NCBI GenBank assembly: GCA_049513715.1
Contig: JBEKVV010000009.1
Span: forward strand, 1-20,794
Origin: Candidatus Bathyarchaeia archaeon
GTDB lineage: Archaea; Thermoproteota; Bathyarchaeia; 40CM-2-53-6
Length of the DNA stretch: 20,794 bases
Direction of reading: 5' to 3'
Positions within the stretch are counted from its first letter, which is position 1. Each line of letters opens with the position of its first letter. Under the pieces are notes generated by a model that saw nothing but the letters and a program-made list of their open reading frames with translations, did not search any database and was not told where the DNA came from. Below, piece by piece: positions 1-19,551 of the stretch. The translations under genes and the position numbers were made by a program.

Positions 1-845
1 TTCTGTGTCTTCTTCTCTCCTTCCAAGACGCATGCAACGTAGAGCGATGCAGCCGCAAGCCCCATCGGATCTTTGCCCGTGACTATTCCTTTCTTCTTCG
101 CTTCATTTATGATTCGTATTGCTCTCTGTTGAGTTAGCATAGAGATTTCCACTTTCGTAGCGATCTTCGAGATGCACGTCACCGGATCCACAACAGGCAT
201 GCGCAAGTCGAGCTCTCTTACAAGCAATCTGTAGCATCTTGCGACATCCTTCTTACGAATCCTGCTTGCAGCCGAGACATCTTTCAGAGTCCTTGGAGTT
301 TCAGACATCCTGCAAGCGGCATATAACGAGGCTGCGGTTATTGCGGCTATAGCTCGTCCTCGCACGAGCGCTTTGTCCAGAGCCTTACGATAAACTATTG
401 CGGCACGTTCTTTGATCGAGGCTGGAATGTGAAGCACATCTGTCAAGCGGTCAAGTTCAGCCATAGCTTGAGCCAAATTCCGATCATCTGACGAATGGAC
501 CCTGGTCCTGATCTGCCATTTCCTTAAGCGGAGCATCTCTAACCTTGTGGCAAGTGGAAGTTGACGACCGGAAGCATCTCGATTCACATGATCAATAACA
601 GTGGAGAGGCCTTTGTCGTGAATGGAGAAGGACGTCGGGAGGCCAACTCGACCACGTTCATCTTTTTCCTCCTTGGTGAAGGCGCGCCACTCAGGTCCTT
701 GGTTCAACGCGTGCTCGCTCAGAACAAGGCCACAATCATGGCAAATCATCTCCCCTAGATCATAATCTTCAACGAGGTTTGCGCTACCGCACTCTGGACA
801 GTTCGTGACTTTCCCTATCTTTCTGGTTGTCGTACTCGCACTCAT
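1..845 (-). CDS. tfb: Transcription initiation factor IIB (TFB), 3' end outside window
   Basis: Manual translation from ATG at 845: MSASTTTRKIGKVTNCPECGSANLVEDYDLGEMICHDCGLVL..GPEWRAF..RLRKWQ..RNLAQAMAELDRL..LVRGR..AASLYAACR..GKDPMGLAAASLYVAC. Shows the Zn ribbon, B-reader and cyclin repeats. Absent from the ORF track because it has no stop in the window. Confidence 0.98.
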   Translation of the reverse strand, partial: MSASTTTRKIGKVTNCPECGSANLVEDYDLGEMICHDCGLVLSEHALNQGPEWRAFTKEEKDERGRVGLPTSFSIHDKGLSTVIDHVNRDASGRQLPLATRLEMLRLRKWQIRTRVHSSDDRNLAQAMAELDRLTDVLHIPASIKERAAIVYRKALDKALVRGRAIAAITAASLYAACRMSETPRTLKDVSAASRIRKKDVARCYRLLVRELDLRMPVVDPVTCISKIATKVEISMLTQQRAIRIINEAKKKGIVTGKDPMGLAAASLYVACVLEGEKKTQ

Positions 846-916
846 TTTTTCATCAACCCACACTATGCTTTACGCTCGAGCCATCTCTTCAGTAGAACGC
901 GCACCGTTCTGCCTCA

Positions 917-943
917 AAACCCGTCCGGGCCGACCTGAGCTAT
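917..943 (+). repeat. Partial copy of repeat family C (tRNA 3'-end-like)
   Basis: CCGTCCGGGCCGACCTGAGCTAT (921-943) matches 10259-10281 CCGACCGGGCCCACCGGAGCTAT at 20/23. Confidence 0.6.
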
Positions 944-1078
944 CCACTCTGATGTGTCAGTGATAAGAGTGTTTAGAGTGTCGAGGCGAAGAAAAAGCAG
1001 GATCAAAGTCGAGGGAGAGAACAGATGGATAACTCTCATACAGAACGCGAGTAAACGAACAGCATTAAGGCGCTAACC

Positions 1079-1669
1079 CTAGTGTGGAAGAATTTTGTCC
1101 CAGTTTTCGAGCAATTTCAGCATCAACGGCACTACAAACTCCTTTCCTATTCTAGCCACGGTGTCCAGTCTCTGCTTTAGCCTTGATGTATCAGGATTAG
1201 GTTTTGCAATCTCGTCCGCAAACTCCTTTACAGCAATCTCGGCGGCCTCCTTAGTACTCGCGTCCACATTTTGCTGCTGAATAGCTTGAACAAGTTGGTC
1301 TAGATTGATGCTAACCAACTGATTGCTATATTGCATCTGGCTCACTTGAATGACTTGGTGAGGTGTAGCTGTTCTCTCTTTGACCTCGATGTCGAGGAGG
1401 TCCATCAACTGTAGTGTTCGCAGCTTTGCTTCCTCCAATGGAAGCTGCATTCGCGCTGGGGCGTCAATTGATATGATGGTTACGCCTGAAGGCGCAACTT
1501 CTTGGATTTCTGCTATTTGAGTTTCGTTTGGGAAAAGCGATTTAGCTTGCTTCAACAGCGTATTGAACTTAATGACTAATGCATCTGATGCACCAAACAA
1601 TTTTTGTGTTGACCGACTCATCAGAAGGTCGATTTCATTGTAAAGCCTAGGTAGGGAACGTCTTAGCAC
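1079..1669 (-). CDS. Hypothetical helical protein (possible ATT start at 1699)
   Basis: 196-aa ORF with natural composition, a Q-rich linker and a C-terminal helical bundle. The frame stays open upstream; an in-frame ATT at 1699 follows a GGAGAGG SD-like motif and a TATA-like CTATAAG near 1740. Confidence 0.7.
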   Translation of the reverse strand: MLRRSLPRLYNEIDLLMSRSTQKLFGASDALVIKFNTLLKQAKSLFPNETQIAEIQEVAPSGVTIISIDAPARMQLPLEEAKLRTLQLMDLLDIEVKERTATPHQVIQVSQMQYSNQLVSINLDQLVQAIQQQNVDASTKEAAEIAVKEFADEIAKPNPDTSRLKQRLDTVARIGKEFVVPLMLKLLENWDKILPH

Positions 1670-1784
1670 CAGAACGTCTGTTGGGGTTTCTGATGAAATT
1701 CTAGTTCCTCTCCGAAGCCGTTCCTTGCCTGTCTGTTCTTATAGCTTAGCTTCGTGCTGTGGTTTCGGTCAACACAATCCGTGT

Positions 1785-1937
1785 CTAGCCCCTCAACCGA
1801 CTTTTACAGTCCTAGCCATCAACCGACATCATCAAGTGCCTGCCATCAACCGTTACTGTTACCCTCGGTTGGGTAACGTTACCTTAACGGTTGTCAAACC
1901 GATTCCTGTGAGTGTTACCTTTCGGTTGATTCCTAGG
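1785..1937. repeat. Symmetric short-repeat array (3x CAACCG facing 3x GTTACC..CGGTTG) with 14/16 inverted ends
   Basis: CTAGCCCCTCAACCGAC 1785, CTAGCCATCAACCGAC 1812, CTGCCATCAACCG 1840; GTTACCCTCGGTTG 1858, GTTACCTTAACGGTTG 1878, GTTACCTTTCGGTTG 1914; inverted repeat 1811-1826 / 1922-1937. Confidence 0.75.
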
Positions 1938-2201
1938 ATGTTTCCAGATGAAAAGGCAATTAGAAAGTTGTTCTATGGAACCACGGTGATGGTTTCTTTA
2001 GAGCTAGTATGGCATGTTTTGCATTTGCACTTGGGAGAGGTGCAACGCATTTCGTCTTTGTCTGTTGGTTTCCCACATTCCAATCACTCTGTGACCACAT
2101 CTTCGACATAAGAGGCATTGCTTGAACTGTTCGCATGCCTGTTCTCTCATCACGAGCTAGCAGAAAGGAGAAAATCATAGTGAGGGGGAAGGTTCACTGA
2201 A

Positions 2202-2300
2202 TGGTGGGGGGAGTTAGCTTTACACCCACGTTTGAACCCTCGTCGTTTGTATCCAGAGATGGGGCAGGGGATTCGAACCCCAATTTACCGGTACATATAA
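2202..2300 (-). repeat. Stacked tRNA 3'-half fragments / att-like site (family A copy 1)
   Basis: TGGTGGGGGGAGTTAGCTTTACACCCACG (degenerate reverse complement of T-arm, acceptor and CCA), TTTGAACCCTC, and GGGGATTCGAACCCC (2267-2281), which is identical to tRNA-Leu 7139-7153. Confidence 0.8.
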
Positions 2301-2325
2301 GCTCCGAAGTCCTCACAAGAAGCTA

Positions 2326-2904
2326 GTGGGTGAGGTGCTGACTGTGACTTTCGTTCCTCCGAAGAACAAGAAAAAAGACTACCAAGACAATCACGTGACA
2401 ATCAAATATCCTTTAGTCCAAGACTTAGAAATTGCTACCGAGATTTATCCTACGGAACCTATGCAGCTCACTTTTCCTGGAGAACGACTAACATGGGTTA
2501 ATCCCCGTTGGTGGAATGCACCTCAGAGGAGCAATTTGAACAACGAAGATATTTTCGTTCATCCTGAGACAGACCTCGCTAATCTTCGCCGTCACTATGA
2601 ATCAGTAGGTTGGAATACGTTTGTGATTCTCCAAGACGTGACCCATGACGGTCCCACGGCGGCGCATAGAGCGGGTTTCCCTGCGTTGTATCCACAAGAC
2701 CAGATCGAACTAGCCCGATGGGGAGACGACGTTATTCTGCGATTGCATATTGATGTATACTCTTACAACGGCAGACTAGTGAGCGCACCTCACGTTGAGC
2801 CAGACCCCGTGACCAACATGGCAGAGCATCTGGCAATGTATGAGAATCACGACGAAATTCGAGGCCCATTGGCCGTGAGCATGTTCACGAATTTTTACGT
2901 GTGA
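2326..2904 (+). CDS. Hypothetical protein
   Basis: 192-aa ORF with a TATA-like ATATAAG about 30 nt upstream; no family recognised. Confidence 0.7.
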   Translation: MGEVLTVTFVPPKNKKKDYQDNHVTIKYPLVQDLEIATEIYPTEPMQLTFPGERLTWVNPRWWNAPQRSNLNNEDIFVHPETDLANLRRHYESVGWNTFVILQDVTHDGPTAAHRAGFPALYPQDQIELARWGDDVILRLHIDVYSYNGRLVSAPHVEPDPVTNMAEHLAMYENHDEIRGPLAVSMFTNFYV

Positions 2905-3117
2905 CACTAGAGGATCTAGGATCTGATGACCTCGAACGGACGATGAACTCAGGAACTTTGTGAACTTTTGTTCTCAATCACGATGTTCTCGACTAAAAGC
3001 GCAGCAACAAGAACAATCGTCATTCCCCAGTCTATGAACCTGAAGTGCGTCCAAGATTCCAACATGCCTTGAATTGCGGTGATAAAGAGCGCTTGAATCT
3101 GTCGCGCACTCTTTAGA

Positions 3118-3396
3118 TCAACTTGAGAAGGGCCCTTTGTCATAGTCATGTGAGTCTTGGTTGGCTACGACTTCTATGAGAGTCTCTGAATTCATGATTC
3201 CTTCGAGCTTGGTGGCCTGGGAAACTGAACTGAACAGCTCCTTCACGTCCTTGCCTTCCAAGTAGGCAACGATATCGAATCTTCCGAAGACAGCGTAGGC
3301 ATCGGTGACGAATTCTAGAGCTTTGAGTTGCTCTGCTAGGCCCACGGCCTTCGGCACTCTGCCTCCACTTCTAAACAGCATTACTGCTCTCATCAT
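3118..3396 (-). CDS. Stand-alone Lrp/AsnC ligand-binding (RAM) domain protein
   Basis: VTDAYAVFGRFDIVAYLEGKD..GIMNSETLI matches the AsnC C-terminal pattern; no HTH. Confidence 0.88.
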   Translation of the reverse strand: MMRAVMLFRSGGRVPKAVGLAEQLKALEFVTDAYAVFGRFDIVAYLEGKDVKELFSSVSQATKLEGIMNSETLIEVVANQDSHDYDKGPFSS

Positions 3397-3402
3397 TCCT
3401 GA

Positions 3403-3651
3403 TCATTCCTCCGCGGCAACCAATGTCTCAGTAGTTACAACGTCGGGAAGGTCCCCTATCTCGATCCCGAGAGCGGTGAGTGCTTTCATGTCCTTCACTT
3501 CAATCCTTGCCACAACATCAGCACCGCCCATGGCCGCAAACGCAGACTTGATGCCTTCGAAGGAAGCTATTCTCTTGGCCACTTGGTAGTGTTCTCCGGG
3601 TCGAACTCTAATCAAAACACAGGCCTTCACAGTCCTCTCCCTACTGGTCAT
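3403..3651 (-). CDS. Stand-alone Lrp/AsnC ligand-binding (RAM) domain protein
   Basis: VKACVLIRVRPG..SAFAAMGGADVVARIEVKDMKAL..IGDLPDVVTTETLV; tandem with the previous gene (6-nt gap). Confidence 0.9.
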   Translation of the reverse strand: MTSRERTVKACVLIRVRPGEHYQVAKRIASFEGIKSAFAAMGGADVVARIEVKDMKALTALGIEIGDLPDVVTTETLVAAEE

Positions 3652-3867
3652 CGTTTACACCATTCCAATTCCTTTTTCCTTTATGACTTGTAAGGATTCT
3701 GTTCCCTCACGAATAGGTCTAATTTGTCTTCCTAAAATCAGAAGATGGAATCCACAATATGAATTGAATTGTGTGGGTGGTCAGGCGCCGATATTCCTAT
3801 CAGAATATTGAGGGTTCGAAAGCCACTCCACAGATGCCTACGAAGCGAAACGTGTGTATGAAATTTC

Positions 3868-3899
3868 GTGGGGCCAATGGGATTTGCACCCACGACCTC
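3868..3899 (-). repeat. Degenerate tRNA 3'-half fragment
   Basis: Reverse complement reads GAGGTC GTGGG TGCAAAT CCCAT TGGCCCC ACG = variable loop, T-arm and acceptor 3' strand; no 5' half. Confidence 0.75.
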
Positions 3900-4083
3900 T
3901 GGCCCTCAGGATCTGCCAGATCCTATTCTTCTTAGAGGCGGTTCTAGCGATTTCTTTCATACCCGCACTTAGGGCATAACCAGAAGTAATCATATTTCCT
4001 CATCGGAGTCTTGCAGGCAGGACATCTTTCCATTTGCAAATTCCGCGTAAGCTGCCAACTGCTAGCGTTTCTTTCAGATTGAT

Positions 4084-4461
4084 TTAGAGATGCTTTCTGA
4101 CCTGAGATTCAAGGTCGTCAGGGGTTACGATGTGTATGTTTGCGCGGTCACCGAGAATTTTCTTTGCTTTCTCGACGTGGGTAGGTGGTACGATGAGGAG
4201 GAAAGGGATGCCGTTGACCTTGGCGGCGGAGAGCAAATTGTCCAGCATGAGCGAGAACATTGCCGTGCGTTCCTGTTCGGCAGGTATGACCTTGTGCAGA
4301 TGTCCGACCACTACGTTCACTTCGCCTTTGTTGAGATAGCTGACGTATTTTCCGTGGCCATCCGACAGGTTCGCAACTGGAATTGTCTCAATGCCTTCGG
4401 CTGCAAGCTTCGCCAAGAGGAGCGAATCAGTTCCTTCGAAATATCCAACTACTGCCGTCAG
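4084..4461 (-). CDS. Conserved-looking hypothetical alpha/beta protein, probable CTG start
   Basis: The ORF-track frame extends 15 codons to CTG 4461 behind a GGTGA SD: (M)TAVVGYFEGTDSLLLAKLAAEGIETIPVANLSDGHGKY..VVVGHLHKVIP. Confidence 0.8.
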   Translation of the reverse strand: MTAVVGYFEGTDSLLLAKLAAEGIETIPVANLSDGHGKYVSYLNKGEVNVVVGHLHKVIPAEQERTAMFSLMLDNLLSAAKVNGIPFLLIVPPTHVEKAKKILGDRANIHIVTPDDLESQVRKHL

Positions 4462-4600
4462 TCTTCACCAAAGACTAGAAATCCTTCGGACCTCGCTAAA
4501 GGATTATCGTTCTCCGCTAGGAAAGAGAAGAAAGACCAGCCGATTCCCTGCATCTGGTCGCGGAACCTATTCGATGTGCAACGTTACGATTCAGAAGGCT

Positions 4601-4646
4601 CAGAGATGGGGCAGGGGATTTTGACCCAACTTACCGGTACCTATAA
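4601..4646 (-). repeat. Family A copy 2 (tRNA T-arm-derived repeat plus TATA)
   Basis: CAGAGATGGGGCAGGGGATT is identical to 2254-2273; both copies continue with TTACCGGTAC.TATAA. Confidence 0.9.
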
Positions 4647-4665
4647 ACTTCCTGAGTTCGGTTAC

Positions 4666-4709
4666 GACGGTTCAAATTGCGATGCTCGCACCATTAGTAC
4701 CACACACAC
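4666..4709 (+). repeat. Family B copy (tRNA 3' end plus ACAC tail), inverted relative to the other copies
   Basis: GACGGTTCAAATTGCGATGCTCGCACCATTAGTACCACACACA versus the reverse complement of 6884-6926, GACGGTTCAAATTCTGTCGCCCGCACCACTAGACCCACACACA. Confidence 0.85.
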
Positions 4710-4782
4710 TTACGGCCTATGCGACGAGGGAACGTGTTAGGGGAGGAATCTCGTTAGCAACCTCTGCTCCGGAACTAAGCAA

Positions 4783-4992
4783 CTATGCAACTAGGGGCTC
4801 AGCGATCTGCTTTCTACGTCTACGTCTCACCGAATCCACAATCGTCAAGAACTCAGCCTCGCTGAGCAGTTCAACGCCTTTGTCGCAGTATTGCCCTGTC
4901 CTTCGCTCGATCTCACGATCTATCTCCTCGCGTTCTTCGTGGGTCGTATCGATCCCCAGCTTTCGCAGCCACTCTCTGACCTTAATGCTCAT
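4783..4992 (-). CDS. Small charged hypothetical protein
   Basis: 69 aa, ATG start, helical and charged, co-oriented with its neighbours. Confidence 0.75.
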   Translation of the reverse strand: MSIKVREWLRKLGIDTTHEEREEIDREIERRTGQYCDKGVELLSEAEFLTIVDSVRRRRRKQIAEPLVA

Positions 4993-5034
4993 TTTGTTGC
5001 AGACCCCTGTAGTTTTTCTTCGAGAGATAATCGC

Positions 5035-5139
5035 CTAGTCATTTTTACAATAACCCCCGCTTGCCTTACAATACTCTTTTCCATTCAGCATGCAATGCTG
5101 ATGCTCTGAAGGATAATACGGACAACTAGGAACAGTCAT
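5035..5139 (-). CDS. Cys-rich microprotein (34 aa)
   Basis: MTVPSCPYYPSEHQHCMLNGKEYCKASGGYCKND; GGAGA SD upstream; 4 Cys and 2 His. Confidence 0.55.
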   Translation of the reverse strand: MTVPSCPYYPSEHQHCMLNGKEYCKASGGYCKND

Positions 5140-5156
5140 GTTCTCCGGAGGAGACT

Positions 5157-5378
5157 TCATGTTTTTACCACTTCGTTTTTCGACCCGCAGTAAGGGCAGA
5201 AATCTAAGTCCTTGTAGATTGTTTCGTAGGGTCCGGTGTCGGTTCTGAAAGCTATTTTCTGTGTTTTGTAGTGGATGGTTACGTTTTGTGCTCCCCACTG
5301 TTCAGCTATGCCAGTACGGCAGAAGGCTACATTTTCTATCTTCGGTCCCAACGCATACTCTTTGAATGTTGCTTTCAT
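5157..5378 (-). CDS. Small zinc-ribbon-like protein
   Basis: 73 aa with FC..FCPYCG; AAGGA upstream of the ATG. Confidence 0.7.
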   Translation of the reverse strand: MKATFKEYALGPKIENVAFCRTGIAEQWGAQNVTIHYKTQKIAFRTDTGPYETIYKDLDFCPYCGSKNEVVKT

Positions 5379-5400
5379 TTCATGGGTTCCTTCTTAGAGA

Positions 5401-5565
5401 TTAGCGTAAGGGAGAGATGGACGAGCGTTGCTCTTGCAAGTGTTCTTCTAGTTGCTTAACATACCCATCAGCCCACTTCTGGCATTGCTCTTCAATATTG
5501 TACCGGCAATGCACATCGAATACATCCAGCAGCCCTTCCACTACGGATTCTTTGAGGCTACTCAT
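5401..5565 (-). CDS. Small hypothetical protein (54 aa, below ORF-track cutoff)
   Basis: MSSLKESVVEGLLDVFDVHCRYNIEEQCQKWADGYVKQLEEHLQEQRSSISPLR; AGGTGA SD upstream. Confidence 0.6.
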   Translation of the reverse strand: MSSLKESVVEGLLDVFDVHCRYNIEEQCQKWADGYVKQLEEHLQEQRSSISPLR

Positions 5566-5621
5566 TTCGCTTTCACCTTGTAGGTTTCTCTAAGGAGATC
5601 TCAGCAGCGATTTCTAAGGAC

Positions 5622-5903
5622 TTAGTTATGTTCGATTTCCTGTAAGCGTTTTTTCCACCCTTTACTGTCAAAGAAGGTTGTACCTTGGTCGAAGTCTGAC
5701 ATTCGAAGGAAATTGCTTTCGGCTTGACGGGGAGTGCTCAGTGAAATCTTACAACCAAAAGACTGTTCGGGCGGATTGGGAGGGAGATCTGGTAAATCCA
5801 CGATTGCAAATGCGTGGTCTGTCCTCTCGTTGATTCTCAGATAAAGAAGCACATACCGGTTCTTGAGCCATCCCTGCACGGCGGTAGGATCACATTTCCC
5901 CAT
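5622..5903 (-). CDS. Hypothetical protein
   Basis: 93-aa ATG ORF in the same minus-strand string. Confidence 0.55.
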   Translation of the reverse strand: MGKCDPTAVQGWLKNRYVLLYLRINERTDHAFAIVDLPDLPPNPPEQSFGCKISLSTPRQAESNFLRMSDFDQGTTFFDSKGWKKRLQEIEHN

Positions 5904-6117
5904 CGGGCATCGTTTGAACGTCTCTTCAACTGATGGTAATAAGGGAGTTAGCGTGTAAGAAATCGCTACTGCGTCACACTCTAATGTCTACTATCGAAAC
6001 TGCTTTGGTTTCACATTTCGCTTACCCCCTGTAAGTCTGAGCAGACTACATAGTGATTGTCAAGAAAGCTTTCAAAAAACAGAGCTTAGCTCACCGTAAG
6101 GATCCATAGTTTTTTCT

Positions 6118-6140
6118 TGTGTGGTTCTAGTAGTGCGGGC
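6118..6140 (-). repeat. Family B partial copy
   Basis: TGTGTGGTTCTAGTAGTGCGGGC matches 6886-6908 at 21/23. Confidence 0.85.
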
Positions 6141-6193
6141 CAAGCATCTTAATTACATCATATGCCTCGACCAAGTATATTGGGGAAGGAAAG

Positions 6194-6556
6194 ATGTCAA
6201 TATATTGGGTAAGGAGCTATTATGGAAAACCAGGGAAAGTTACAGAGTACCTAAAATGGTTGAACTCAGACCGGGCAAAGCTATTGGCTTCTAAAATAGA
6301 GAAGGAAACTGGCATCAAGTACGTTAACACTTACACCACGATTCAAAGCTTTGGCGACTATGATGCCGAGGATTGGTGGGTGGTGCCCGACTGGGCCTCC
6401 TTAGACAAGATGCGTGACTGCAACGCTTTAGCGGAATGGACCCTCAACACTTGGGACATGATCGACCAGACAAGGCCTCAAAGGTCAAGGATGATGCGAA
6501 CGGTCAGCGAAGTCAAGGTCATAGAGAAACCAGAGAAGTGGACTGAACTACTGTAG
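6194..6556 (+). CDS. Dimeric alpha+beta barrel (NIPSNAP-like) protein
   Basis: YWVRSYYGKPGKVTEYLKW..YVNTY..EDWWVVPDWASLDK pattern; GGGGAAGG SD-like motif. Confidence 0.7.
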   Translation: MSIYWVRSYYGKPGKVTEYLKWLNSDRAKLLASKIEKETGIKYVNTYTTIQSFGDYDAEDWWVVPDWASLDKMRDCNALAEWTLNTWDMIDQTRPQRSRMMRTVSEVKVIEKPEKWTELL

Positions 6557-6851
6557 GACAGAACTAGTGCCCAATCGTCGGATCAATGAAAATGACGTTG
6601 GCCGGAGGCAAATGCACTCTTTCCACAAGGCACTCCCGAGAAGCCGACATTACCAAATGGGTGCGCAGCCAGCTACATGAAAGATGACCAGTGAGACGTA
6701 GTGCTTCTAGGTGAATGTTCTGAGCAGCCCTAGCGTGGGAACCTTACCACTAGAGTGCGTAAGCTAGCACCACCAAAACGCAGTTGCAACGATCTCGTTT
6801 CCCGAAATCCATTTCGTAGGTTATTCCGCGAGTAACATACCAGTTCCACTG

Positions 6852-6927
6852 GAATTTGAACCGTCAGTTCAGGCGTTATTTTGTGTGTGTGGGTCTAGTG
6901 GTGCGGGCGACAGAATTTGAACCGTCA
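6852..6927 (-). repeat. Family B copy with internal 15-bp duplication
   Basis: GAATTTGAACCGTCA at 6852-6866 and 6913-6927; the reverse complement includes the T-loop TTCAAAT and CGCCCGC-ACCA. Confidence 0.85.
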
Positions 6928-7126
6928 TGTTCGTTTGTGTAAGTACCTGCAAGACGTAGGATGTTTTCTGTGAACTCAGAGTCACTGAGCAATCATGATC
7001 TAGGGACGGACGAACGTGGGTCTAAACGCTCACAGGAAACGAAAACCCACGCAGAAAACTTGCTCCCAGAACTCAGCTTCATTGCGCAGAATCAGCGTGA
7101 ACTCTGCTTACTTAGGCATGTTTTGT

Positions 7127-7260
7127 TGGTGCGGGGGCGGGGATTCGAACCCCGGAACCCCTTCGGGACAGGAGCCTTTGGACGAAGCTTATCACTTCTC
7201 AGTCCTGCGCTTTCAAGGGCGCTTTCGAAGCCCACTTTGACCTGGCTGGGCGACCCCCGC
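7127..7260 (-). tRNA. trnL: tRNA-Leu(GAG) with two non-canonical introns (23/24: 7211-7234; 34/35: 7178-7199), CCA encoded
   Basis: Spliced: GCGGGGG TC GCCC AGCCAGGTCAA AGGC G CAGGA CTGAGGC TCCTG, long variable arm, CGGGG TTCGAAT CCCCG CCCCCGC ACCA. Both introns fit BHB geometry (central helices TCAA/TTGA and GGAC/GTCC). Confidence 0.95.
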
Positions 7261-7439
7261 ACAACGGGAATAAACAGATTCGTGAACGCTATTAAGGTCA
7301 ACTGCGGGGCAAGTAGGTTCGAGGTGCCAGGCCTCGGATAGTTTCACCCGTCAGAGGCTGCGGTGCGCGAGTCGCAATCGGCAACCTGATAAAGATTAGC
7401 GAACCAAGCTTCAAAAAGCCAAACATACGTTACACGGAA

Positions 7440-7742
7440 GTGTCTGTGAAGTACTTGAAATTCGCTTTCGGGAAGAAACAGAAGGTCGACGAAGTCGAGC
7501 TGGACAACCTATTTACAGACCTGCAGGGCGTTCTGCTCAAACACCCGTTAGTTCCCAAGGCGAACGTTGACGCCCTCGTCTCTGAGTGGATCAACGACCT
7601 TCTCTTCTTAGCAGGAAAAATCACAGAAGAAGAACTTCAAGAAGCCATGCAATCCTTTGAAAAGCAAGGCGTCGAAGTCACCGCGGAAGCGGACAGCGGG
7701 GACGACAAAGACGACTCCGACGACGATGACGACGACGAATAA
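7440..7742 (+). CDS. Hypothetical protein with acidic C-terminal tail
   Basis: 100 aa, helical core, ends in DSGDDKDDSDDDDDDE. Confidence 0.8.
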   Translation: MSVKYLKFAFGKKQKVDEVELDNLFTDLQGVLLKHPLVPKANVDALVSEWINDLLFLAGKITEEELQEAMQSFEKQGVEVTAEADSGDDKDDSDDDDDDE

Positions 7743-7978
7743 CAGCATCCAGTCACAGCTGGCCCGGTATTGTTTCTACATATTGTAGCGCAAGCCTTGG
7801 CAAGCGAAAAGAAACCATGCGGTGCAAGCAAAACCTAGAACATGCACCATCAACAGAGAGAGCATAAAACCCGCATCATCCTCTTTCTTAGTGCAATATA
7901 TACTGTACTTGCGAAATCTTCTTGCAAGATCCATGTGGCCTTCAGGCGTAGAGGCATAGGTTGCCGGGCCGAGCGCCA

Positions 7979-8557
7979 ATGATAATACAATACGTCTTCG
8001 AAATTTTCTACTTGACCCTCATTGCAACAATCATTGCCTTCATCCTAACATTCTACATGTTATCTGGAAAGCCACCCAAGAACAAGCAAGTCGATAATGA
8101 AAGCAAAGGCGAAAGTGTCGAACCACATGGAATGGAGAGGAGCGAGAGGAGCTGGCTCTACTTTCTCCTCGCGATTGTTTTGATCGGCAATCTCGTCACC
8201 CTGTCACCCCTAATTCCATCCGCTAGCTACGGAATGTGGACACAGTCGACTCCAGTCGAGACGATCACAATCCAAGTGGTGAACTATCACTTCATGATGC
8301 CACAGGTGCCGATCACCGTCCCCGTGGGAAAAGTCGTCGAGTTCATTCTCGTTTCTCATGATGTTACGTACGGGTTCGGGGTCTTCAGAAAAGATGGAAC
8401 TATGGTCTTCCAAATGCAAGTCGTTCCAGAACCATACAAGAATACTTTGCTATGGGTTTTTGACCAGCCCGGATTTTATGATGTGAGATCCACAGAGTAC
8501 AGTGGCCCACTAAGCCCGTTCATGTACCTTCCAGACGCGGTCCACGTGGAGGGTTGA
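7979..8557 (+). CDS. Heme-copper oxidoreductase subunit II (2 TM + cupredoxin) lacking CuA ligands
   Basis: Two TM helices, then ITVPVGKVVEFILVSHDVTYGF..QPGFYDVRSTEYSGPLSPFM. The canonical DVxH and CxExCGxxHxxM are replaced by DVTY and STEYSGPLSPFM. ATG 7979 is preferred as start. Confidence 0.9.
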   Translation: MIIQYVFEIFYLTLIATIIAFILTFYMLSGKPPKNKQVDNESKGESVEPHGMERSERSWLYFLLAIVLIGNLVTLSPLIPSASYGMWTQSTPVETITIQVVNYHFMMPQVPITVPVGKVVEFILVSHDVTYGFGVFRKDGTMVFQMQVVPEPYKNTLLWVFDQPGFYDVRSTEYSGPLSPFMYLPDAVHVEG

Positions 8558-8560
8558 GCG

Positions 8561-10183
8561 TTGAACGAAGATGAACGGAAAATTCTCACGTTAAGGTTCG
8601 TAGTTGTGTCCCTGCTTTTCTTGGGCCTCGGCGGAATAGAGGGCGTAATGATGCGTGGTAGGGTTGACAACCTTGATGTCCCCTTGCTAGGGTTGGATCC
8701 GCAGCACTTCTACGCCATGCTGACTGCGCATCCGTTCGTTTTGATCTACGGATTCGCATACATGGCCGTAATGGGCGCCTTCTACTTCCTCGTCCCGTAT
8801 GTGCTTGGCCGGGATATTTACAGCAAGAAGACTGCGGCCGCTTCATTCTGGCTCATGATTGTGGGGGTCATGATGGTTTGGACGACGTCGTTCGTTACTC
8901 ATTATGCTCCACTCTATACGCTCTACTGGCCGCTTCCCGTAGCGGTTGCGACAGCCGGATGGAATCCGGTCAGTATTCTTCCATTCGGAGTAGGCATGGT
9001 CCTCATCTTCGTGGCGGTGTTAGCGTTCTTCTTCAACATGTTCGCAACAGTCTTCCTTCCACTTCGCCCCGCCACCAGTTCCCGGCCGAAGTCGACTTTT
9101 ATCGCCGGGGAACTGCTTGTGACCGCATTCAGCTTGGACGTGCTCAGAGCCAAGATTCGCGGTGCCCCGAGCTACGTAAGTAAGGTCTTCGCGTTCCCAG
9201 TGTTCGTAGTAGCCGTTTTCAGGGGCTGCGTTGATACAACCATCAACGCACTCATCATGGGCGGGGTAGGAGTTCTACTCTCAACCTACGGAATCTCCTA
9301 CCTAATTCCATCCATTGCGCTTAGTCCAACGTTGATTGACCCGCTCGTCTACAAGAACGTGTTCTGGTGGGGGCTGGACATGATCGCTGACGGAAACGTG
9401 TTAATGTTCACAGCCGCAACATGGTACCTCATAATTCCCCTACTTTTGAATCGAAAACTCTTCGGCGAGAACGTCGTTAGATCTGTGATCCTCGCTGACC
9501 TCTTGGTTTCAATGGGAGTTTGGGGCCATCACGTGATGGCTGATACACCACAACCCCTCGGGCTTCTCGTTGAAGGCCAGATTGTAACATGGGGCGAGCT
9601 TGTTACAATGGGGTTGACAATATTCGCGGTGCTAATGACCCTGTGGCTAGCCCGTCCCGTTAAGTATACTGCGCCTTTGAAGTGGGTGCTCGTTTCCATC
9701 ATGGGCTACGGAATAGGTGGAACTGCTGGCATAATACAGGCCAATTATGCAGTGAACCGCTATTTCCACAACACGCAATGGGTCGTGGGAATCCACGCGC
9801 ACGTGCAACTGCTTCTTGGATTGGGCGCAACAATCTTCGCCGCCATCTACGCACTATTCCCTCTGCTAACTGGCAAACAACTCAACGAGCGACTCTCAAA
9901 TCTGCAACTCATCCTATGGACGGCTGGTGCTCTAGTGATGGGACTTAGCATGGGGGTAGCGGGGGTAAACGGAATGCTGAGACGCATGTTATACATCAAC
10001 GGCTTAGGCCCGTTCCAAGAATACATGAACGCCGCTCTCATCGGGGCCATTATCCTAGCCTCGGGGTACGGTGTTTTCCTATTGAATATCGTACGAGCCG
10101 TAGGCCTCAGAACACTCCTCAGCATATTCTACTCACCTCACAAACCAACTGTAGCAGCCTCAGTTGCCACCCACGCAAGCTGA
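8561..10183 (+). CDS. Heme-copper oxidoreductase subunit I, gNOR-like putative nitric oxide reductase
   Basis: About 12-13 TM helices. Low-spin heme His (LTAHP), WGHH, WVVGIHAH and GMLRR are present; helix VI reads FWWGLDMIAD instead of FWFFGHPEVY. Confidence 0.88.
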   Translation: MNEDERKILTLRFVVVSLLFLGLGGIEGVMMRGRVDNLDVPLLGLDPQHFYAMLTAHPFVLIYGFAYMAVMGAFYFLVPYVLGRDIYSKKTAAASFWLMIVGVMMVWTTSFVTHYAPLYTLYWPLPVAVATAGWNPVSILPFGVGMVLIFVAVLAFFFNMFATVFLPLRPATSSRPKSTFIAGELLVTAFSLDVLRAKIRGAPSYVSKVFAFPVFVVAVFRGCVDTTINALIMGGVGVLLSTYGISYLIPSIALSPTLIDPLVYKNVFWWGLDMIADGNVLMFTAATWYLIIPLLLNRKLFGENVVRSVILADLLVSMGVWGHHVMADTPQPLGLLVEGQIVTWGELVTMGLTIFAVLMTLWLARPVKYTAPLKWVLVSIMGYGIGGTAGIIQANYAVNRYFHNTQWVVGIHAHVQLLLGLGATIFAAIYALFPLLTGKQLNERLSNLQLILWTAGALVMGLSMGVAGVNGMLRRMLYINGLGPFQEYMNAALIGAIILASGYGVFLLNIVRAVGLRTLLSIFYSPHKPTVAASVATHAS

Positions 10184-10230
10184 AGAAGGGCCAACTCTTC
10201 TTTAGCTGAAGCTTCTAACTGCCTTCATGT

Positions 10231-10313
10231 GAGAACTAGATGGAACACAACCCCGAAACCGACCGGGCCCACCGGAGCTATTCTAGTGCCACAGGTCCGT
10301 AAGGTAAAGTATT
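10231..10313 (+). repeat. Family C copy 1 (~83 bp direct repeat)
   Basis: Aligns at roughly 80% by eye to 11646-11727; contains CGAAACCGACCGGGCCCACC (tRNA 3'-end-like) and ACAGGTCCGTAAGGTAAAGTATT. Confidence 0.9.
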
Positions 10314-10544
10314 GAGGGGTTGTGTTTTCGTTGCGTTTTGTAGGTGTGCTCTGTTAATCTGCCTTAGGAACCACATCCTCTCCACCCTTCGTGGATTACT
10401 TGCTTACGGCAAGTTACGAGCCTCCGGGTTTACCATGCGATAAACCACTGAGACTCGATACTAACTGGTTCAAACGAGAGCGCGAGAAGAGGAGGGCGCG
10501 GGACTTCTGCAACGCAGGTGACGGAATCACGTTGACAGGTAGAA

Positions 10545-10732
10545 GTGTATACACCCAACGTTTGGGTGTATACACCCGCGGATGGAAAGGTGCACCCAAA
10601 CATCAGGTGACTGTCACCTTGAAGCCCTCATGTTTCCTGCAGGGCGATAACACCCAATGATTGGGGGTTAACACCCAGTAGGGGGGTACTGCATAGGGAG
10701 CATTGCACCCAATCATCGGGTGCATTACACCT
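10545..10732. repeat. Array of ~8 palindromic GGGTG-Nx-CACCC units
   Basis: Units at 10545, 10564, 10588, 10605, 10642, 10663, 10696 and 10718; perfect 14-bp inverted repeat across 10545-10575. Confidence 0.8.
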
Positions 10733-11017
10733 TGAGGCCCTCACCTGCCCCGCGGAGGGTGTACGAAACGACCGGTATTGTTTCTACATGTTGTGGCGCA
10801 AGCCGCTGATTCTCTTTAGTTGGTGGAGGGCTTAAGGTTGAGCCCGGAGCGGGTTTCCGTAAGTACTGTTTGTTCCGGTGGCGGTCGTTGATTCTCCACC
10901 TTTCAGGGATTAGTCGTAGCGACCAATATCTTAGCGGTGGGATAACCATGTTTTTTCGACGGTCTCGGTGAGGAATTAGCAAGTTGTTTCAAGTTGTTAT
11001 GTGGGAGCGTTGGAAGG

Positions 11018-11197
11018 TTACCCGCCAGTTAATGTCCATGGCTTTAGAACGATGCAGCGCGCAGGCGTCATGCCGCGGCCTTCAATGATTATCTCAAGTG
11101 CTCTGTGACCGCCGGTGTAGGGAACTACTCGCTCTGCCACCTTCTTCCTGCAGTAACACACGATCTTTTTTCCAATGATTTCATTCGCGCCCGGCAT
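11018..11197 (-). CDS. Small basic hypothetical protein (59 aa), possibly a truncated partner of the RHH gene
   Basis: ATG 3 nt after the RHH stop: MPGANEIIGKKIVCYCRKKVAERVVPYTGGHRALEIIIEGRGMTPARCIVLKPWTLTGG. Confidence 0.45.
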   Translation of the reverse strand: MPGANEIIGKKIVCYCRKKVAERVVPYTGGHRALEIIIEGRGMTPARCIVLKPWTLTGG

Positions 11198-11200
11198 GAG

Positions 11201-11530
11201 CTACGCCTCCACTGTAAGGTCTTGCAGTTCTGCTGCTCGGCCTTCCTTTTCGAGTTTCCTGAGCGCCTCAAGAACGTCAAGAACGGAATAGCCGAGTTCT
11301 TTTGCAGCCTCATCCGGCCAGATGAGTCCTCCGCGCTCTCTCATGTACTGGTGAAGTTCCTGCTTCAACTTTCCCGAGCTTGTTTTGGCAACTGTATTGA
11401 GTTCGGATAGGCGGTGCCTCACCGCGTCCCGAACGAAATCACTTGAGTTTATGTACAGGCCAGTTCGCACAAGGCGTCTTATCTGGTCATACTCGACCGA
11501 TGAAAGCTTGGCCGCAACCTGCTTCGACAA
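11201..11530 (-). CDS. Ribbon-helix-helix (Arc/MetJ/ParD-like) plus winged-HTH protein
   Basis: QVAAKLSSVEYDQIRRLVRTGLYINSSDFVRDAVR (RHH), then IWPDEAAKELGYSVLDVLEALRKLEKEG (HTH). Confidence 0.85.
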   Translation of the reverse strand: MSKQVAAKLSSVEYDQIRRLVRTGLYINSSDFVRDAVRHRLSELNTVAKTSSGKLKQELHQYMRERGGLIWPDEAAKELGYSVLDVLEALRKLEKEGRAAELQDLTVEA

Positions 11531-11645
11531 GGCGATTACCTAATGTACACAGGTATACCGATGCAAATAAATCTCTCTTGGCAGAGCGAAACAAACCATT
11601 AGCCCAACAGCAGAACCAACTCCGCCCCAACCTCAACAACCAAAC

Positions 11646-11731
11646 GAGAACAAGACACAACGCAACCCCCAACCGACGGGACCCAGCGGACCTATTTGGT
11701 GCTACAGGTCCGTAACGGTAAAGTATTTTAG
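11646..11731 (+). promoter_or_regulatory. Family C copy 2, ending in the probable BRE/TATA of rpl3
   Basis: Palindrome CGGACCT-N12-AGGTCCG, then GGTAAAGTATTTTAG about 50 nt upstream of the rpl3 TTG. Confidence 0.6.
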
Positions 11732-11779
11732 AGCTGGGCCGGAACTGGCCGGAAGCACAGAGCTAACTTGGTGTAGTCA

Positions 11780-12790
11780 TTGGGTCACAGGAAAGTTCAT
11801 GCACCGAAACGTGGTTCTCTCTCATTCCTGCCTAGGGGACGTGCTTCACGATGGGTAGGCAGGATCCGCTACTGGCCTGACGTTGAAGGGGGGCCGACAT
11901 TGCTCGCGTTTGCTGGATTCAAAGCCGGCATGACGTACGCGATAGCCCTAGACAACCGCGAAGGCTCCTTGACGTACGGGAAGGAAATCGTCGTCTCAAT
12001 GACTGTTCTCGAAACGCCACCAATGCTAGCGTGCGCCCTAAGAGCTTACAGGAAAACCTACGAGGGCCTCCAAACCTTCAGCGAAGCTTGGATGGAGAAG
12101 CCCCCGAAAGATTTCGAACGGATCATCTCGGTTCCTGAGAAATTCAACACGGAAGAGGGCCTCAAGAAGATTGAAGGCAATTTGGACAAGATCGCTGACC
12201 TTAGGTTGCTTTTGGCCACTCAACCCCGCAACGCGAAACGCCCAAAGAAAGCTCCCGACATAGTCGAGGTGAAGATCGGCGGCGGCTCAATCAAAGACCG
12301 GTTCGAATACGGCAAGAAACTTCTCGGATCGGAAGTGAAAGCTTCCGACGTAATCAAAGAAGGACAAGCGGTCGATGCAGTGGGCATAACGAAAGGCAAA
12401 GGAATTCAAGGCCCAGTCAAGCGGTGGGGAATTCGCCGGAAAACTCACAAAGCCCGCAAGACCGTTCGCCAAGTCGGATCCATCGGCGCTTGGACACCGC
12501 ACTACGTCATGTACTCCGTCCCACGAGCAGGCCAGATGGGCTTCCACCAACGCACCGAATACAACAAACTAATCATGAAAATCGGCAACAACGGAAGCGA
12601 AATCACACCGAAGGGCGGTTTTCTACGATACGGAGTGATTAACTCAGATTACGTTGCTGTGAAAGGCAGCGTCCCCGGTACAAGGAACAGGTTGATACTA
12701 CTTCGCCACTCATCGCGAGTAATCCCTGAAGAAAAGGCTGAGGCGCCAAAGATCGAATATCTTAGCGTCATGTCAATACAAGGCGACTAG
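11780..12790 (+). CDS. rpl3: 50S ribosomal protein L3 (uL3, archaeal type)
   Basis: MGHRKVHAPKRGSLSFLPRGRA..FAGFKAGMT..TKGKGIQGPVKRWG..PRAGQMGFHQRTEYNK..KGSVPG. Confidence 0.99.
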   Translation: MGHRKVHAPKRGSLSFLPRGRASRWVGRIRYWPDVEGGPTLLAFAGFKAGMTYAIALDNREGSLTYGKEIVVSMTVLETPPMLACALRAYRKTYEGLQTFSEAWMEKPPKDFERIISVPEKFNTEEGLKKIEGNLDKIADLRLLLATQPRNAKRPKKAPDIVEVKIGGGSIKDRFEYGKKLLGSEVKASDVIKEGQAVDAVGITKGKGIQGPVKRWGIRRKTHKARKTVRQVGSIGAWTPHYVMYSVPRAGQMGFHQRTEYNKLIMKIGNNGSEITPKGGFLRYGVINSDYVAVKGSVPGTRNRLILLRHSSRVIPEEKAEAPKIEYLSVMSIQGD

Positions 12791-12981
12791 AACCAAGCGT
12801 TGAGCGCTTGCAACCCAGTGCCCCTCTCTGCCCGTGAATGTGTGCGCTCGCGTTTTTCGGGCCGTTTACAGGTAAGATAAGGGGACTATGTGCTCTTGGA
12901 GCAGTTGATTTCTGGGTTGATTTCCGTTCCAGGGCAGGTTTGGGTTTGTCCGCGGAAAAAAAGGTGATTCAGAGATCCCCC

Positions 12982-15297
12982 TTAAACGGGAGGAACCTGC
13001 CCGTCTTCCAACGTAATCACGTTCTGAATGTGCTCATCTAAGCCGCCTACGTGGCTGATGATGAAGATCTGCTTGAACTTCTTCGACAAATCCACCGCCA
13101 AGTACTCGAGGATGCTTGACCGCCGAACTTCGTCTGAGCTTCCCAGCGGCTCGTCCAGGAACACAAATTCAGGTTTCTGCCCCTTCACTTCTGGCAGAAG
13201 AGCTAACGCGAATGCAAGCCGCATGGCCAGCAGAAACTGATCTTCCGTTCCTCCGGAATACACGTCGCGGGGCTTGTACTCGCCTGCCTCAGGATCCCAG
13301 ACTTGCAGGTTGTAGTTTTCATCGAGCATGGCCGCTTTGTAGCGTGAGGACGTCAGCGCCGGTAGAATTGCGCCCATGTAGGCTTGAACGTTCGGCCTAA
13401 TCCGGTTCCTGAGCGACTCAGCGGTACCTTGCAGCCCCTCAACCGCCCGCCAAACAACTTGGAGATGACGCTCCAGTTTCTTGACGGCGCCCTCTTGCGC
13501 TTGAACCCGCGAAACAATGTCGCCATGCTCCGCGATGTAATCATCCAACTGGCGGATTCTCTGCTGGTTCTGCTGGAGTTCAGCCTGGAGGCCGGCCATC
13601 TGCCGTCCCAGAGTTTCACGGTTGGTAAGTGTTTTCGTGAACAGTACAGGGGAGAAAGTCACACCATCAGGTAGCTTCGGAAATGAAAGCGAGTTAAGCT
13701 CACCTTCAAGTTCGTGGACCAGCTTCTCAAGCGCAATCAGATCGTCGGAGGAAGGAGTCTTCTGCAATTCTCCTTGGATCGCTTGCTGCTTCGCGCGCAA
13801 CGTGTTCACTGTTTGCTTGTCTTGTGAAGAGGCATGCAGAACCATACTCGCTGCCTGTAGGCTCCCGAGGTTCAAATTCGACTCGAAGACCCCCCCCTGG
13901 GAGGGGGGTAAGCTCTCGCACAGTTGGGCCATCTCTGCCTCAGCCCCAACAAAGCTCAACTTCGCGCGGCTATGCTCATCCTCAGCTTTCTTGAGATCTC
14001 TCCGTTTCCCCTCAAGGAAGCGAAGGTCTCCAATAAGCGACTGATGTTGTACGATGGAACCTCGTGCCGACATTCTTGAAACGGCGAATCCAAGTGGAAC
14101 CATCCCCGCAAGAGCAAGGGCCATGGCAAGGAGCATGGCTCCGACCAAGAAAGCAGAAATGGCAGCTACAAAGAACACGACCGATGCAAGCGTAAAGGGC
14201 ATTATGGGTTTCTTTGCCCTCTCCACCTCCTTCCCAAAGCGTGTCTCGTTAACAAACGAGTGCTTTCGCTCAAGGTCCCTTACCTCCGAATCCAAAGTCC
14301 GCCAAGTTCGTTCTGATGCAGTCAGTTCAGCTGCGCTTGCTTTGGCTGCCTCCAGTTTCGCCTGAATTTTCCCTAGAACGGGTTCGGATTGTCCATAGTC
14401 TCGGAATTTGCTTAGGTCTTTCTCGATACCCTGAAGCTCAATCCTCAGTCGCTCCGTTCGGCGCTTTTGCTCCTCGAGGAGCTTACTCTTGCCATCGACC
14501 TGGGAGCTCAGGTTCTCTTTCTTTCGGAGAACCGAGTCGTATGCGGATAGCGTGTTGCAGAGGGCGCTCGTATCTGCATATTTCGTTTCCAAATTCTTGA
14601 TCGATTCGCTGAGACTCACGTTTTGCTCGAGCAGCTTCTTTCTTTCAGCCTCGCTCTCTCTGAACTCATTGAGTTCCTGTTTGAGGACCTTGAGCTTTTC
14701 CTCTCCAACAGGAACCCGCCCGGGTCGGTTGGGTGTACCTTCTAGGTCTCGTCGTTCTTCGGCCAAGTCCGCCATGACAACGTTGAAGCTTTCTAGGTTG
14801 AGGAAAGCGTTGATGATCTTCCTTCTATCGTCCTTGTTCAGCTCGATGAGTTTGTTGAGTTCTTTCTGCGCTACTACGGTGCTTGAAACGATTTCATGAT
14901 ATGTTATTCCACCCAGGAGTTTCACGATTTCTTCATTAACCCTCTCCTGCCCCACCGCTATGGGCTGGACAGAACCTCTCGCAGTAAGCTCGTCCAAAGT
15001 CGCCCGGGTTGGCTTGGTCTTGAACAGGCGCCTCTTAACACGGAACTTTCTGTCCGCAACCTCAAATTCTAGGCTGACCGAAGCTTCACTGGCCCCATAG
15101 CGAACTAGGTCTTCGTTTCGGGCCTTGGGCGGGCGGATTACTCTGCCGAATAGGGCGTACAGAATCGCGTCCAGCACCGAAGATTTTCCGGATTCATTGA
15201 GGCCCGCGATGAGGGTTATGCCATTGCTGAATTGGACTGGGTCGTCTAATCGCAGCTTCTTGAAGTTCATCGCGTGCAGGCTCAGGAGCCTTACCAA
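12982..15297 (-). CDS. Rad50/SbcC/YhaN-like SMC-family ATPase with central TM hairpin
   Basis: Walker A GLNESGKS, Q-loop VAQ, long coiled coils, signature YSGG, Walker B FLDEP, H-loop ISH; no CxxC hook. Confidence 0.93.
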   Translation of the reverse strand: MVRLLSLHAMNFKKLRLDDPVQFSNGITLIAGLNESGKSSVLDAILYALFGRVIRPPKARNEDLVRYGASEASVSLEFEVADRKFRVKRRLFKTKPTRATLDELTARGSVQPIAVGQERVNEEIVKLLGGITYHEIVSSTVVAQKELNKLIELNKDDRRKIINAFLNLESFNVVMADLAEERRDLEGTPNRPGRVPVGEEKLKVLKQELNEFRESEAERKKLLEQNVSLSESIKNLETKYADTSALCNTLSAYDSVLRKKENLSSQVDGKSKLLEEQKRRTERLRIELQGIEKDLSKFRDYGQSEPVLGKIQAKLEAAKASAAELTASERTWRTLDSEVRDLERKHSFVNETRFGKEVERAKKPIMPFTLASVVFFVAAISAFLVGAMLLAMALALAGMVPLGFAVSRMSARGSIVQHQSLIGDLRFLEGKRRDLKKAEDEHSRAKLSFVGAEAEMAQLCESLPPSQGGVFESNLNLGSLQAASMVLHASSQDKQTVNTLRAKQQAIQGELQKTPSSDDLIALEKLVHELEGELNSLSFPKLPDGVTFSPVLFTKTLTNRETLGRQMAGLQAELQQNQQRIRQLDDYIAEHGDIVSRVQAQEGAVKKLERHLQVVWRAVEGLQGTAESLRNRIRPNVQAYMGAILPALTSSRYKAAMLDENYNLQVWDPEAGEYKPRDVYSGGTEDQFLLAMRLAFALALLPEVKGQKPEFVFLDEPLGSSDEVRRSSILEYLAVDLSKKFKQIFIISHVGGLDEHIQNVITLEDGQVPPV

Positions 15298-16454: not shown

Positions 16455-16536
16455 TCCTCAAGCTGGCCCATCAGTATTCGCTCCGCTCCGAGAGCGTTAA
16501 GCATTGCAGGTATGAGCGAAGCACGTAGAATGCTTT

Positions 16537-17010: not shown

Positions 17011-17160
17011 TCGAATCTGACCTGGTTAGGACGGCGTTGAATGGGTAGGTATGCCTTTCGGTGCGTCATGGGCCATTTGACCCTCGTTCATCGTTCCAGA
17101 TTCCAGGAGTCAAGCATACGCATATAGAGCCGATAAGAACTACGCGAACCAAGCGCTGCA

Positions 17161-18489: not shown

Positions 18490-18611
18490 CACGTCGGGCT
18501 TGTGAACGTCGATGCCGAGAAAACTAACTGAGAATCGTCTAGTCTCAACCACATCTCTGAAATGAAGAATTCCAGCAATCGTTTATACACCCTCGAAGTT
18601 CACCCTGAACG

Positions 18612-19475: not shown

Positions 19476-19551
19476 CACAGAAGGTCCTGATCCGGAGCCG
19501 GAAGCCGGGAAATACACTTTAAGACTGACAGGCCTTCCGCTAATTGCGGAT

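Follow-up and report, generated by a model that had tools for sequence, protein, structure and literature searches.

Repeated tRNA-derived sites and a candidate cassette system in an accessory-gene island of a Bathyarchaeia archaeon

Islands at tRNA genes and related systems

Tycheposons, cis-mobilizable elements (CIMEs) and the tandem elements of Thaumarchaeota are known as tRNA-anchored accretion islands, and the system presented here belongs with them. It lies in a 20,794-nucleotide stretch of DNA from a Candidatus Bathyarchaeia archaeon, the complete contig C9 of a metagenome-assembled genome, which we refer to as the window and in which positions 2201-7126 form a 4.9-kb accessory-gene island behind a tRNA-Leu gene. 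The repeats within this island, which are likely recombination sites, are grouped into families A to E, and the enzyme that likely acts on family A, termed IntA, is a tyrosine recombinase encoded on contig C5 of the same genome. Our preferred reading, to which we give a probability of roughly 0.6, is that blocks bounded by A sites are integrase-free cassettes inserted and removed in trans by the XerA-like IntA.

In keeping with accretion islands, a variable island stands next to a tRNA 3′ end and a tyrosine integrase (the one on C5) is tied to a tRNA-adjacent site. The internal joints are mixed: C, D and 9 of 47 A sites are partial tRNA ends, and 36 of the 47 have a non-tRNA tail. The tycheposon islands of Prochlorococcus (10.1101/2020.12.28.424599) resemble the locus in tRNA-side growth, tyrosine integrases, partial-tRNA attachment sites, insertion beside a tRNA segment within islands and ecological cargo. 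Tycheposons encode their own integrase, often with replication genes, and have partial tRNAs as sites (10.1101/2020.12.28.424599), whereas here most sites end in the constant non-tRNA tail, one integrase gene stands against dozens of sites and one family is found at both Leu and Ser tRNAs. The window holds no integrase open reading frame (ORF) of at least 60 aa, as the original prediction made from its sequence had stated, and Pfam detected no replication gene among the island ORFs scanned. The accretion of CIMEs, integrative mobilizable elements and integrative and conjugative elements provides a second likeness, with integrase-less units that keep att sites, insertion at attR and arrays in tandem at tRNA ends. 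Whereas CIMEs derive from autonomous elements by decay and have attL and attR (PMC5704250), the tail-bearing A units, class A1 below, share a dedicated tail and number dozens.

Classical non-suicidal archaeal integrases and thaumarchaeal elements share with our system an intact XerA-like integrase beside a tRNA 3′ end, and in thaumarchaeal cryptic integrated elements reuse of one site leads to arrays (PMC8371274, PMC6563490). The pNOB8-type integrases carry the signature R...YxxR...Y (PMC8371274); IntA was considered as one of them and rejected when the motif test gave HxxR rather than YxxR, and it is intact, unlike the split SSV-type (suicidal) integrase. A repeated non-tRNA cassette site, present here, is not described for archaeal integrases or elements in the passages of PMC8371274 and PMC6563490 consulted, and the constant cassette-borne tail is the new part relative to the closest known systems. 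Our literature search found no description of these repeats, although most subscription papers were outside its scope, as were supplements, which could list such elements. A casposon was rejected, PF01867 (Cas1) having no match in the genome.

Integrons, among them archaeal integrons and clusters of attC sites lacking integron-integrases (CALINs) (PMC9668308), resemble the system in their co-oriented site arrays, in carrying accessory genes, in having an enzyme that can work in trans and in the dozens of related sites per genome; here, by contrast, the sites are derived from tRNA T-arms and the cassettes, from <1 kb to many kb, are often multi-gene with weakly oriented genes. The integron-like character that had been proposed stands as far as co-oriented arrays of cassette sites with accessory genes are concerned, and fails on the IntI integrase, defined by a specific extra domain, and on attC, whose hallmarks are R boxes and a folded bottom strand. 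IntA scores 42.5 bits on TIGR02249 (cut-off 265), an R-box-like motif occurs in 5 of 110 A cores, and shuffled sequences fold as well as the A and B copies of the window (z -0.85 to +1.54). The system is not an integron.

Repeat families and the structure of their sites

The fragments of the original prediction are present in the window, at 2201-2241, 2254-2300, 3868-3905, 4601-4646, 4666-4709, 6118-6139, 6851-6882 and 6883-6926; those listed separately at 2202 and 2231 both exist and belong to a single D site. Profiles modelled on the fragments of the window match the genome (2.79 Mb in 11 contigs, completeness 99.4%, contamination 8.79%) 48 times for A, 71 for B, 22 for C, 5 for D and 19 for E, and a shuffled genome not at all, which bears out the existence of repeated families; the C and B counts include real tRNA genes, and E is the left arm of B. 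The placement in intergenic gaps is likewise confirmed, with midpoints inside ORFs of at least 100 aa in 6/46 A, 8/52 B, 2/15 C and 1/5 D sites (score at least 25); the corresponding figure is 80% for random positions and 68% for nearby ones.

Neighbouring A sites share their orientation in 32 of 34 cases and are clustered, being confined to 17 of 147 20-kb bins where 40.8 were expected (minimum 33 in 10,000 draws). One array, C5:160039-215878, holds 13 co-oriented A copies over 56 kb. The window between 7300 and 20794, with oxidase, L3 and Rad50/Mre11 genes, contains no repeat site; the sites keep clear of this housekeeping half of the window, while an equal density in conserved regions would have spoken against the prediction. 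An enrichment figure based on island intervals drawn around the repeats was discarded for its circular choice of intervals. Other genomes carry the A pattern as well: 19 of 22 others in the genus, 26 of 58 in the family and 33 of 105 in the order (this one included), with 1-10 copies in most carriers against 37 here; a reversed-pattern control across genomes gave no match.

Each A site has four parts: an arm of ~19 bp that is palindromic at its centre (TACCGGTA), a T-stem, a loop of 7 nt containing four variable positions, and a right part by which the copies can be divided. Among 47 scored copies (score at least 20), 36 are of class A1, with a constant non-tRNA tail ending in ATCTCTG, 9 are of class A2, with the end of a Leu or Ser tRNA, and 2 are of neither; both A copies of the window are A1, and the last copy of the C5 array is A2. 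Most A copies thus end in a non-tRNA tail, which contradicts the view of the sites as plain duplications of tRNA 3′ ends. The 15 nt at 2267-2281 are indeed identical to the T-arm of the resident tRNA-Leu (7139-7153), as had been noted; the same 15-mer occurs in four other T-arm/acceptor sequences, and the letters that follow it in the 2254 copy are the constant A tail, so the match does not link this copy to the resident gene. In the A arm (for example at window 2282-2300), the outermost 11 bp may resemble a Xer/dif binding box. A search for a solo host target carrying the A1 tail gave five scattered partial matches.

B sites combine a T-loop mimic, a tRNA-Gly-like acceptor and a CACAC arm, and the same arm is found behind tRNA-Gly ends here and in several relatives. 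An initial label of tRNA-Val, based on ARAGORN, was dropped when the anticodon loops were read as Gly. The B copies occur in both orientations, 15 of 20 neighbours being alike, and the two full copies of the window face inward around 4710-6880; no integrase was found behind tRNA-Gly in the loci fetched. All five D copies of the genome lie close behind an A site and end in a Leu-like acceptor. The DNA after two of them matches that behind the tRNA at C1:124746, and in a relative (G014) a similar post-tRNA stretch is followed by other cargo and then by A1 and D. The interval 7126-2201 is probably one D-bounded island. The C fragment is identical in 37 of 41 positions to the 3′ part of the tRNA at C2:373490-373530, a gene that its acceptor suggests to be Pro-like. 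Several such families are thus nested within the island, probably with different enzymes.

Probable joints, candidate enzyme and rival explanations

A role of A sites as joints is supported by their flanks: among 119 A sites, taken from this genome and from stretches of relatives chosen for holding sites, a common flank of at least 80 nt lies on the left in 7 pairs and on the right in 9, and no pair has both in common. Shared blocks (44 of at least 200 bp and at least 85% identity) provide 77 ends once those at sequence edges are left out, of which 12 fall at A sites, where 2.06 were expected and no more than 6 were reached in 300 draws; when B sites are included the count is 18, against 3.2 expected (maximum 8), with the qualification that these ends are not independent and that BLAST alignments extend into shared repeats. 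One filled/empty pair shows the layout A1-cargo-A2: in G018, 1,040 bp lie between an A1 and an A2, and at the corresponding place G021 has one A2 between the same two flanks (93.5% over 93 nt and 95.9% over 1,470 nt). A metagenome contig (L188) matches the window from the 4601-4646 site through the gene at 4084-4416 and is unrelated upstream, and another (L189) has an A site after its homologue of this gene; most other, more distant homologues in the same scan have no site nearby. For B, the module at 6140-6566 recurs in other genomes and at C1:815221-815646 (91%), its left edge lying at a B-type piece in 7 of 9 other printed copies (judged by eye, one weak), and in G073 the homologue of 4783-4992 is followed by a B site in the corresponding position, past which the DNA is unrelated.

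A deletion between direct repeats would also produce a filled/empty pair, and the repeats might then be dispersed selfish or structural elements at which host homologous recombination between imperfect direct copies makes the breakpoints. The absence of a linked enzyme for B and its two orientations fit this explanation, as does the failure to find IntA in several genomes with A sites. We consider it improbable all the same: the repeats are only ~47 bp long and imperfect, near-invariant blocks surround the four variable A positions, as would be expected of binding sites around a crossover region, and the A arm has a mirror image behind tRNA genes that goes with one particular integrase.

That integrase, which the preferred reading assigns to the A-bounded cassettes, is IntA (C5:218585-219544), an intact 319-aa ORF behind a tRNA and a XerA-like tyrosine recombinase, whose best profile is XerA NF040815 (181.7 bits, cut-off 220) and which keeps R159, H262-x-x-R265 and Y297 (counting from the residue after the first Met). 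A 182-aa ORF lies immediately upstream of IntA. A mirror-image copy of the arm is found behind two tRNA genes of this genome, at C5:220117 and C3:421988, the first followed by IntA and the 13-site A array. In each of the 6 IntA-family loci that include a tRNA, one of which comes from a Hadesarchaea record, the mirror arm stands behind that tRNA (a seventh locus is truncated); none of 16 other integrase loci that include a tRNA shows it. IntA is therefore likely the cognate enzyme of the A sites. This sequence association agrees with the earlier proposal of an enzyme acting in trans, since the likely cognate recombinase is on another contig. A whole IntA element is seen in G003:C2, where an A site with a Ser end lies 28.7 kb on from a tRNA-Ser; G006:C30 has a tRNA, two A1-type sites and an A2, and no integrase match in 15 kb. 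A scan of contigs queried with IntA returned one locus.

The resident tRNA (7127-7260, minus strand), which anchors the island, contains introns; ARAGORN missed it by default and called it Trp in intron mode, and a hand parse shows a GAG anticodon and a long variable arm, making it tRNA-Leu. Relaxed ARAGORN settings gave 893 tRNA calls, mostly spurious, and were discarded. Of the 15 loci examined in relatives, 13 include the end of the orthologous tRNA, and tblastn of 13 window ORFs left of the tRNA found no match in these 15 loci (1.9-60 kb, several of them short). Directly behind the same tRNA-Leu, three relatives (G008, G002 and G019) carry a full integrase gene, the integrases being different. 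Because the relatives' loci lack the window ORFs and three have an integrase directly behind the tRNA, we regard the locus as an integration hotspot. The DNA behind the orthologous tRNA-Leu differs among relatives and blocks are gained or lost at A sites, which supports the prediction that this is not one prophage remnant. As a separate observation, contig G017:C4 (L023) has a 493-aa frame some 1.2-2.6 kb behind the orthologous tRNA-Leu, whose motifs we take to resemble those of a family B DNA polymerase.

These different integrases would also suit passive accretion, in which the repeats are scars of many tandem, decayed tRNA-targeting elements of CIME or tycheposon kind and the blocks are their leftovers. 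Such a process has been described for bacteria and Thaumarchaeota (10.1101/2020.12.28.424599, PMC6563490, PMC5704250). The genome has at least nine tyrosine-recombinase-like ORFs, C and D resemble ordinary att remnants, and most shared-block ends lie away from sites. Accretion of this kind would be expected to leave junctions of a tRNA end with a mirror arm, yet full arm-core-mirror-arm junctions are absent from the 47 copies scored here and occur once among 72 in relatives. Moreover, the 36 A1 sites share one constant tail before DNA that is mostly unrelated between copies, and a single IntA gene stands against 48 sites. On balance we hold passive accretion to be unlikely, if better placed than homologous recombination.

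Under the preferred reading of A-bounded cassettes, an element whose site comprises an arm, a T-arm, a tRNA end and a mirror arm would integrate at a tRNA for Leu or Ser, so that the mirror arm comes to lie behind this tRNA and an A2 at the opposite end, the layout that is observed. Cassettes, presumably circular, would carry the arm with the constant tail (A1) and, unable to rebuild a tRNA, would insert at an A2 or at another A1, with the crossover left of the A tail, to give A1-cargo-A2. Repeated insertion would then build the co-oriented arrays seen inside tRNA-bounded islands. Sites of further systems share the island, namely B (tRNA-Gly-derived, in both orientations), D (likely outer island ends) and C (a single remnant). 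The layouts are read directly from the genomes; circles, catalysis and the direction of growth are what we infer from them.

A broader proposal, which we put forward tentatively, is that an integron analogue was built here independently of IntI and attC: a mobile, tRNA-targeting XerA-like integrase would seed landing sites behind tRNAs for Leu and Ser, cassettes without an integrase, marked by a tail unable to restore a tRNA and pooled across the lineage, would be inserted, excised and exchanged between genomes, and the second, tRNA-Gly-derived family would feed the same islands. If true, this would explain the gain and reshuffling of accessory genes in an abundant uncultured peat archaeon, as well as assembly breaks within its islands. 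It would also show that plain tRNA attachment sites can give rise to cassette arrays and that integron-like behaviour can be reached by another path. The defined pair of enzyme and site is open to testing in Escherichia coli, and a 319-aa integrase with ~47-bp sites and a tolerant central loop could serve as a tool.

A number of findings weigh against cassettes moved by IntA. Close IntA homologues of full length are confined to 4 of 22 genomes of the genus (with one partial in addition), and none was found in the near-complete G014, G016 and G018, all of which carry A sites; neither B nor D could be linked to an enzyme. The clean filled/empty pair is the only one of its kind, and 59 of the 77 shared-block ends lie at no site; in the comparison of gene order that had been proposed as a check, the G018/G021 pair and L188 break at A sites and most block ends lie elsewhere. 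Some A-to-A intervals reach 19-24 kb, and the genes after A sites are weakly oriented (27 in the same direction, 18 opposite). Similarity of the left arm does not follow that of the left flank beyond baseline (0.71 against 0.70; 8 pairs, indels uncorrected). The block 5635-6018 is 98.7% identical to C5:205670-206053 with edges at no site, and in G014, G016, G019 and G012 homologues of the 5622-5903 gene lie a few kb past the anchor gene as seen from the tRNA. The contamination of 8.79%, together with contig ends that overlap each other at 85-99% identity, means that some within-genome pairs may be strain variants.

The ongoing shuffling that had been envisaged was not seen either: assembled contigs, which drop rare variants, contained no excision or circle joint that could be assigned to this organism (four runs for the window and four for the C5 array, seven distinct). 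Joints in the window's run contigs (sides of 22-44 nt) were rejected as excision products, some having single-copy depth and matching repeat junctions elsewhere in the genome, and other run-contig joints were rejected on a depth that varies between runs like that of a co-occurring relative. Separately, the A site at C6:4966 (in C6:4217-5100 of this genome, G000) has the left flank of C5:175014 on one side and the right flank of C5:182604 on the other, the junction expected of a circle from the 7.6-kb block C5:175014-182604.

Contents and surroundings of the island

Moving away from the anchor, an inverted D arm copy at 7013-7027 (plus strand, found by motif scan), ~100 bp behind the tRNA, is likely the left end of a D-type element spanning 7126-2201. 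It is followed by the profile-detected B site at 6883-6926 (minus), with T-loop mimic, tRNA-Gly-like acceptor end and CACAC arm, and by a tandem partial B at 6851-6882 (minus), a left arm with T-loop mimic that represents family E. The recurrent module at 6140-6566 (plus) contains a 120-aa hypothetical ORF (6194-6556) and has similar edges elsewhere; it is abutted by a B half-site of acceptor end and arm at 6118-6139 (minus). A 93-aa hypothetical ORF (5622-5903, minus) falls within the duplicated block 5635-6018, which is at double depth in the assembled runs, and the interval 4783-5565 (minus) holds small hypothetical ORFs at 5401-5565, at 5157-5378 or 5035-5298, and at 4783-4992. The second B site, at 4666-4709 (plus, by profile), is inverted relative to that at 6883-6926.

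At the A1 site 4601-4646 (minus, by profile), with its palindromic arm, T-arm and constant non-tRNA tail, the next putative cassette starts. The site is followed by a 110-aa hypothetical cargo gene from the ORF list (4084-4416, minus), the C fragment at 3865-3905 (minus), from the 3′ part of a tRNA-Pro-like gene and likely an att remnant of another element, and two genes with Lrp/AsnC ligand-binding domains (3118-3651, minus; PF01037, E 8.7e-6 and 1.7e-12). A 66-aa ORF (2949-3149, minus) and a 192-aa hypothetical gene from the ORF list (2326-2904, plus) precede the second A1 site, which has a tRNA-like loop (2254-2300, minus, by profile). The D site at 2201-2241 (minus, by profile), a D arm with a tRNA-Leu-like acceptor end, is likely the right end of the island (attR).

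The window carries archaeal markers, namely an L3_arch profile match above the cut-off and a TFIIB gene (Pfam), and the sequencing runs that contain it are peat and wetland metagenomes, with no RNA run among those listed. Placement in Bathyarchaeia is likely but indirect on these data: source records assign some integrase homologues to Bathyarchaeota or Bathyarchaeia and others to Thermoproteota, Nitrososphaerales or Acidoferrum, and one cluster of proteins similar to a cargo protein consists mostly of Bathyarchaeota. Its stretch 900-5694 is reproduced without any difference as one assembled contig in two of four runs and as two overlapping contigs in the other two, and since independent run contigs reproduce it exactly this stretch is not an assembly artefact. 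The GC content is 47.8% in the island and 52.4% in 7300-20794. Rfam gave a single chance match (E 2.4) in 1500-12000 and no known non-coding RNA family.

Many contigs of the genome end a few kb or less from A sites, and these ends mutually overlap at 85-99% identity. Three near-identical TFIIB genes are present, at window 3-845 (minus), C1:828759 and C5:204489, the latter two with 93% and 89% amino acid identity to the first; the window and C5 copies adjoin repeat-rich islands and could be cargo or strain duplicates. As regards other recombinases, divergent ORFs of this kind, barely detected by Pfam, lie at C2:114871, C1:409576, C1:637796, C2:26825, C1:383624, C1:518407 and C3:166142. A conserved sedentary integrase beside pyrG was considered and rejected, a close homologue (70%, interrupted by stops) occurring in 1 of 40 relatives and the rest being mostly 22-43% identical or short. 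An integrase immediately downstream of pyrG has a cluster of methyltransferase-like and restriction-like genes beside it, as judged by eye from the translations (G000:C1:527170-533069; L003 1171-7070).

Elsewhere in the window, a 33-nt direct repeat (94%) at 7764-7796 and 10772-10804 brackets genes for cytochrome/quinol oxidase subunits II-like and I. The segment 10497-10771, which contains hairpin-like repeats, is 89% identical to C2:430019-430290, and a low-complexity repeat at 1858-1893 has an 83% match at C2:146938-146973, at the edge of a 2.7-kb exact duplication.

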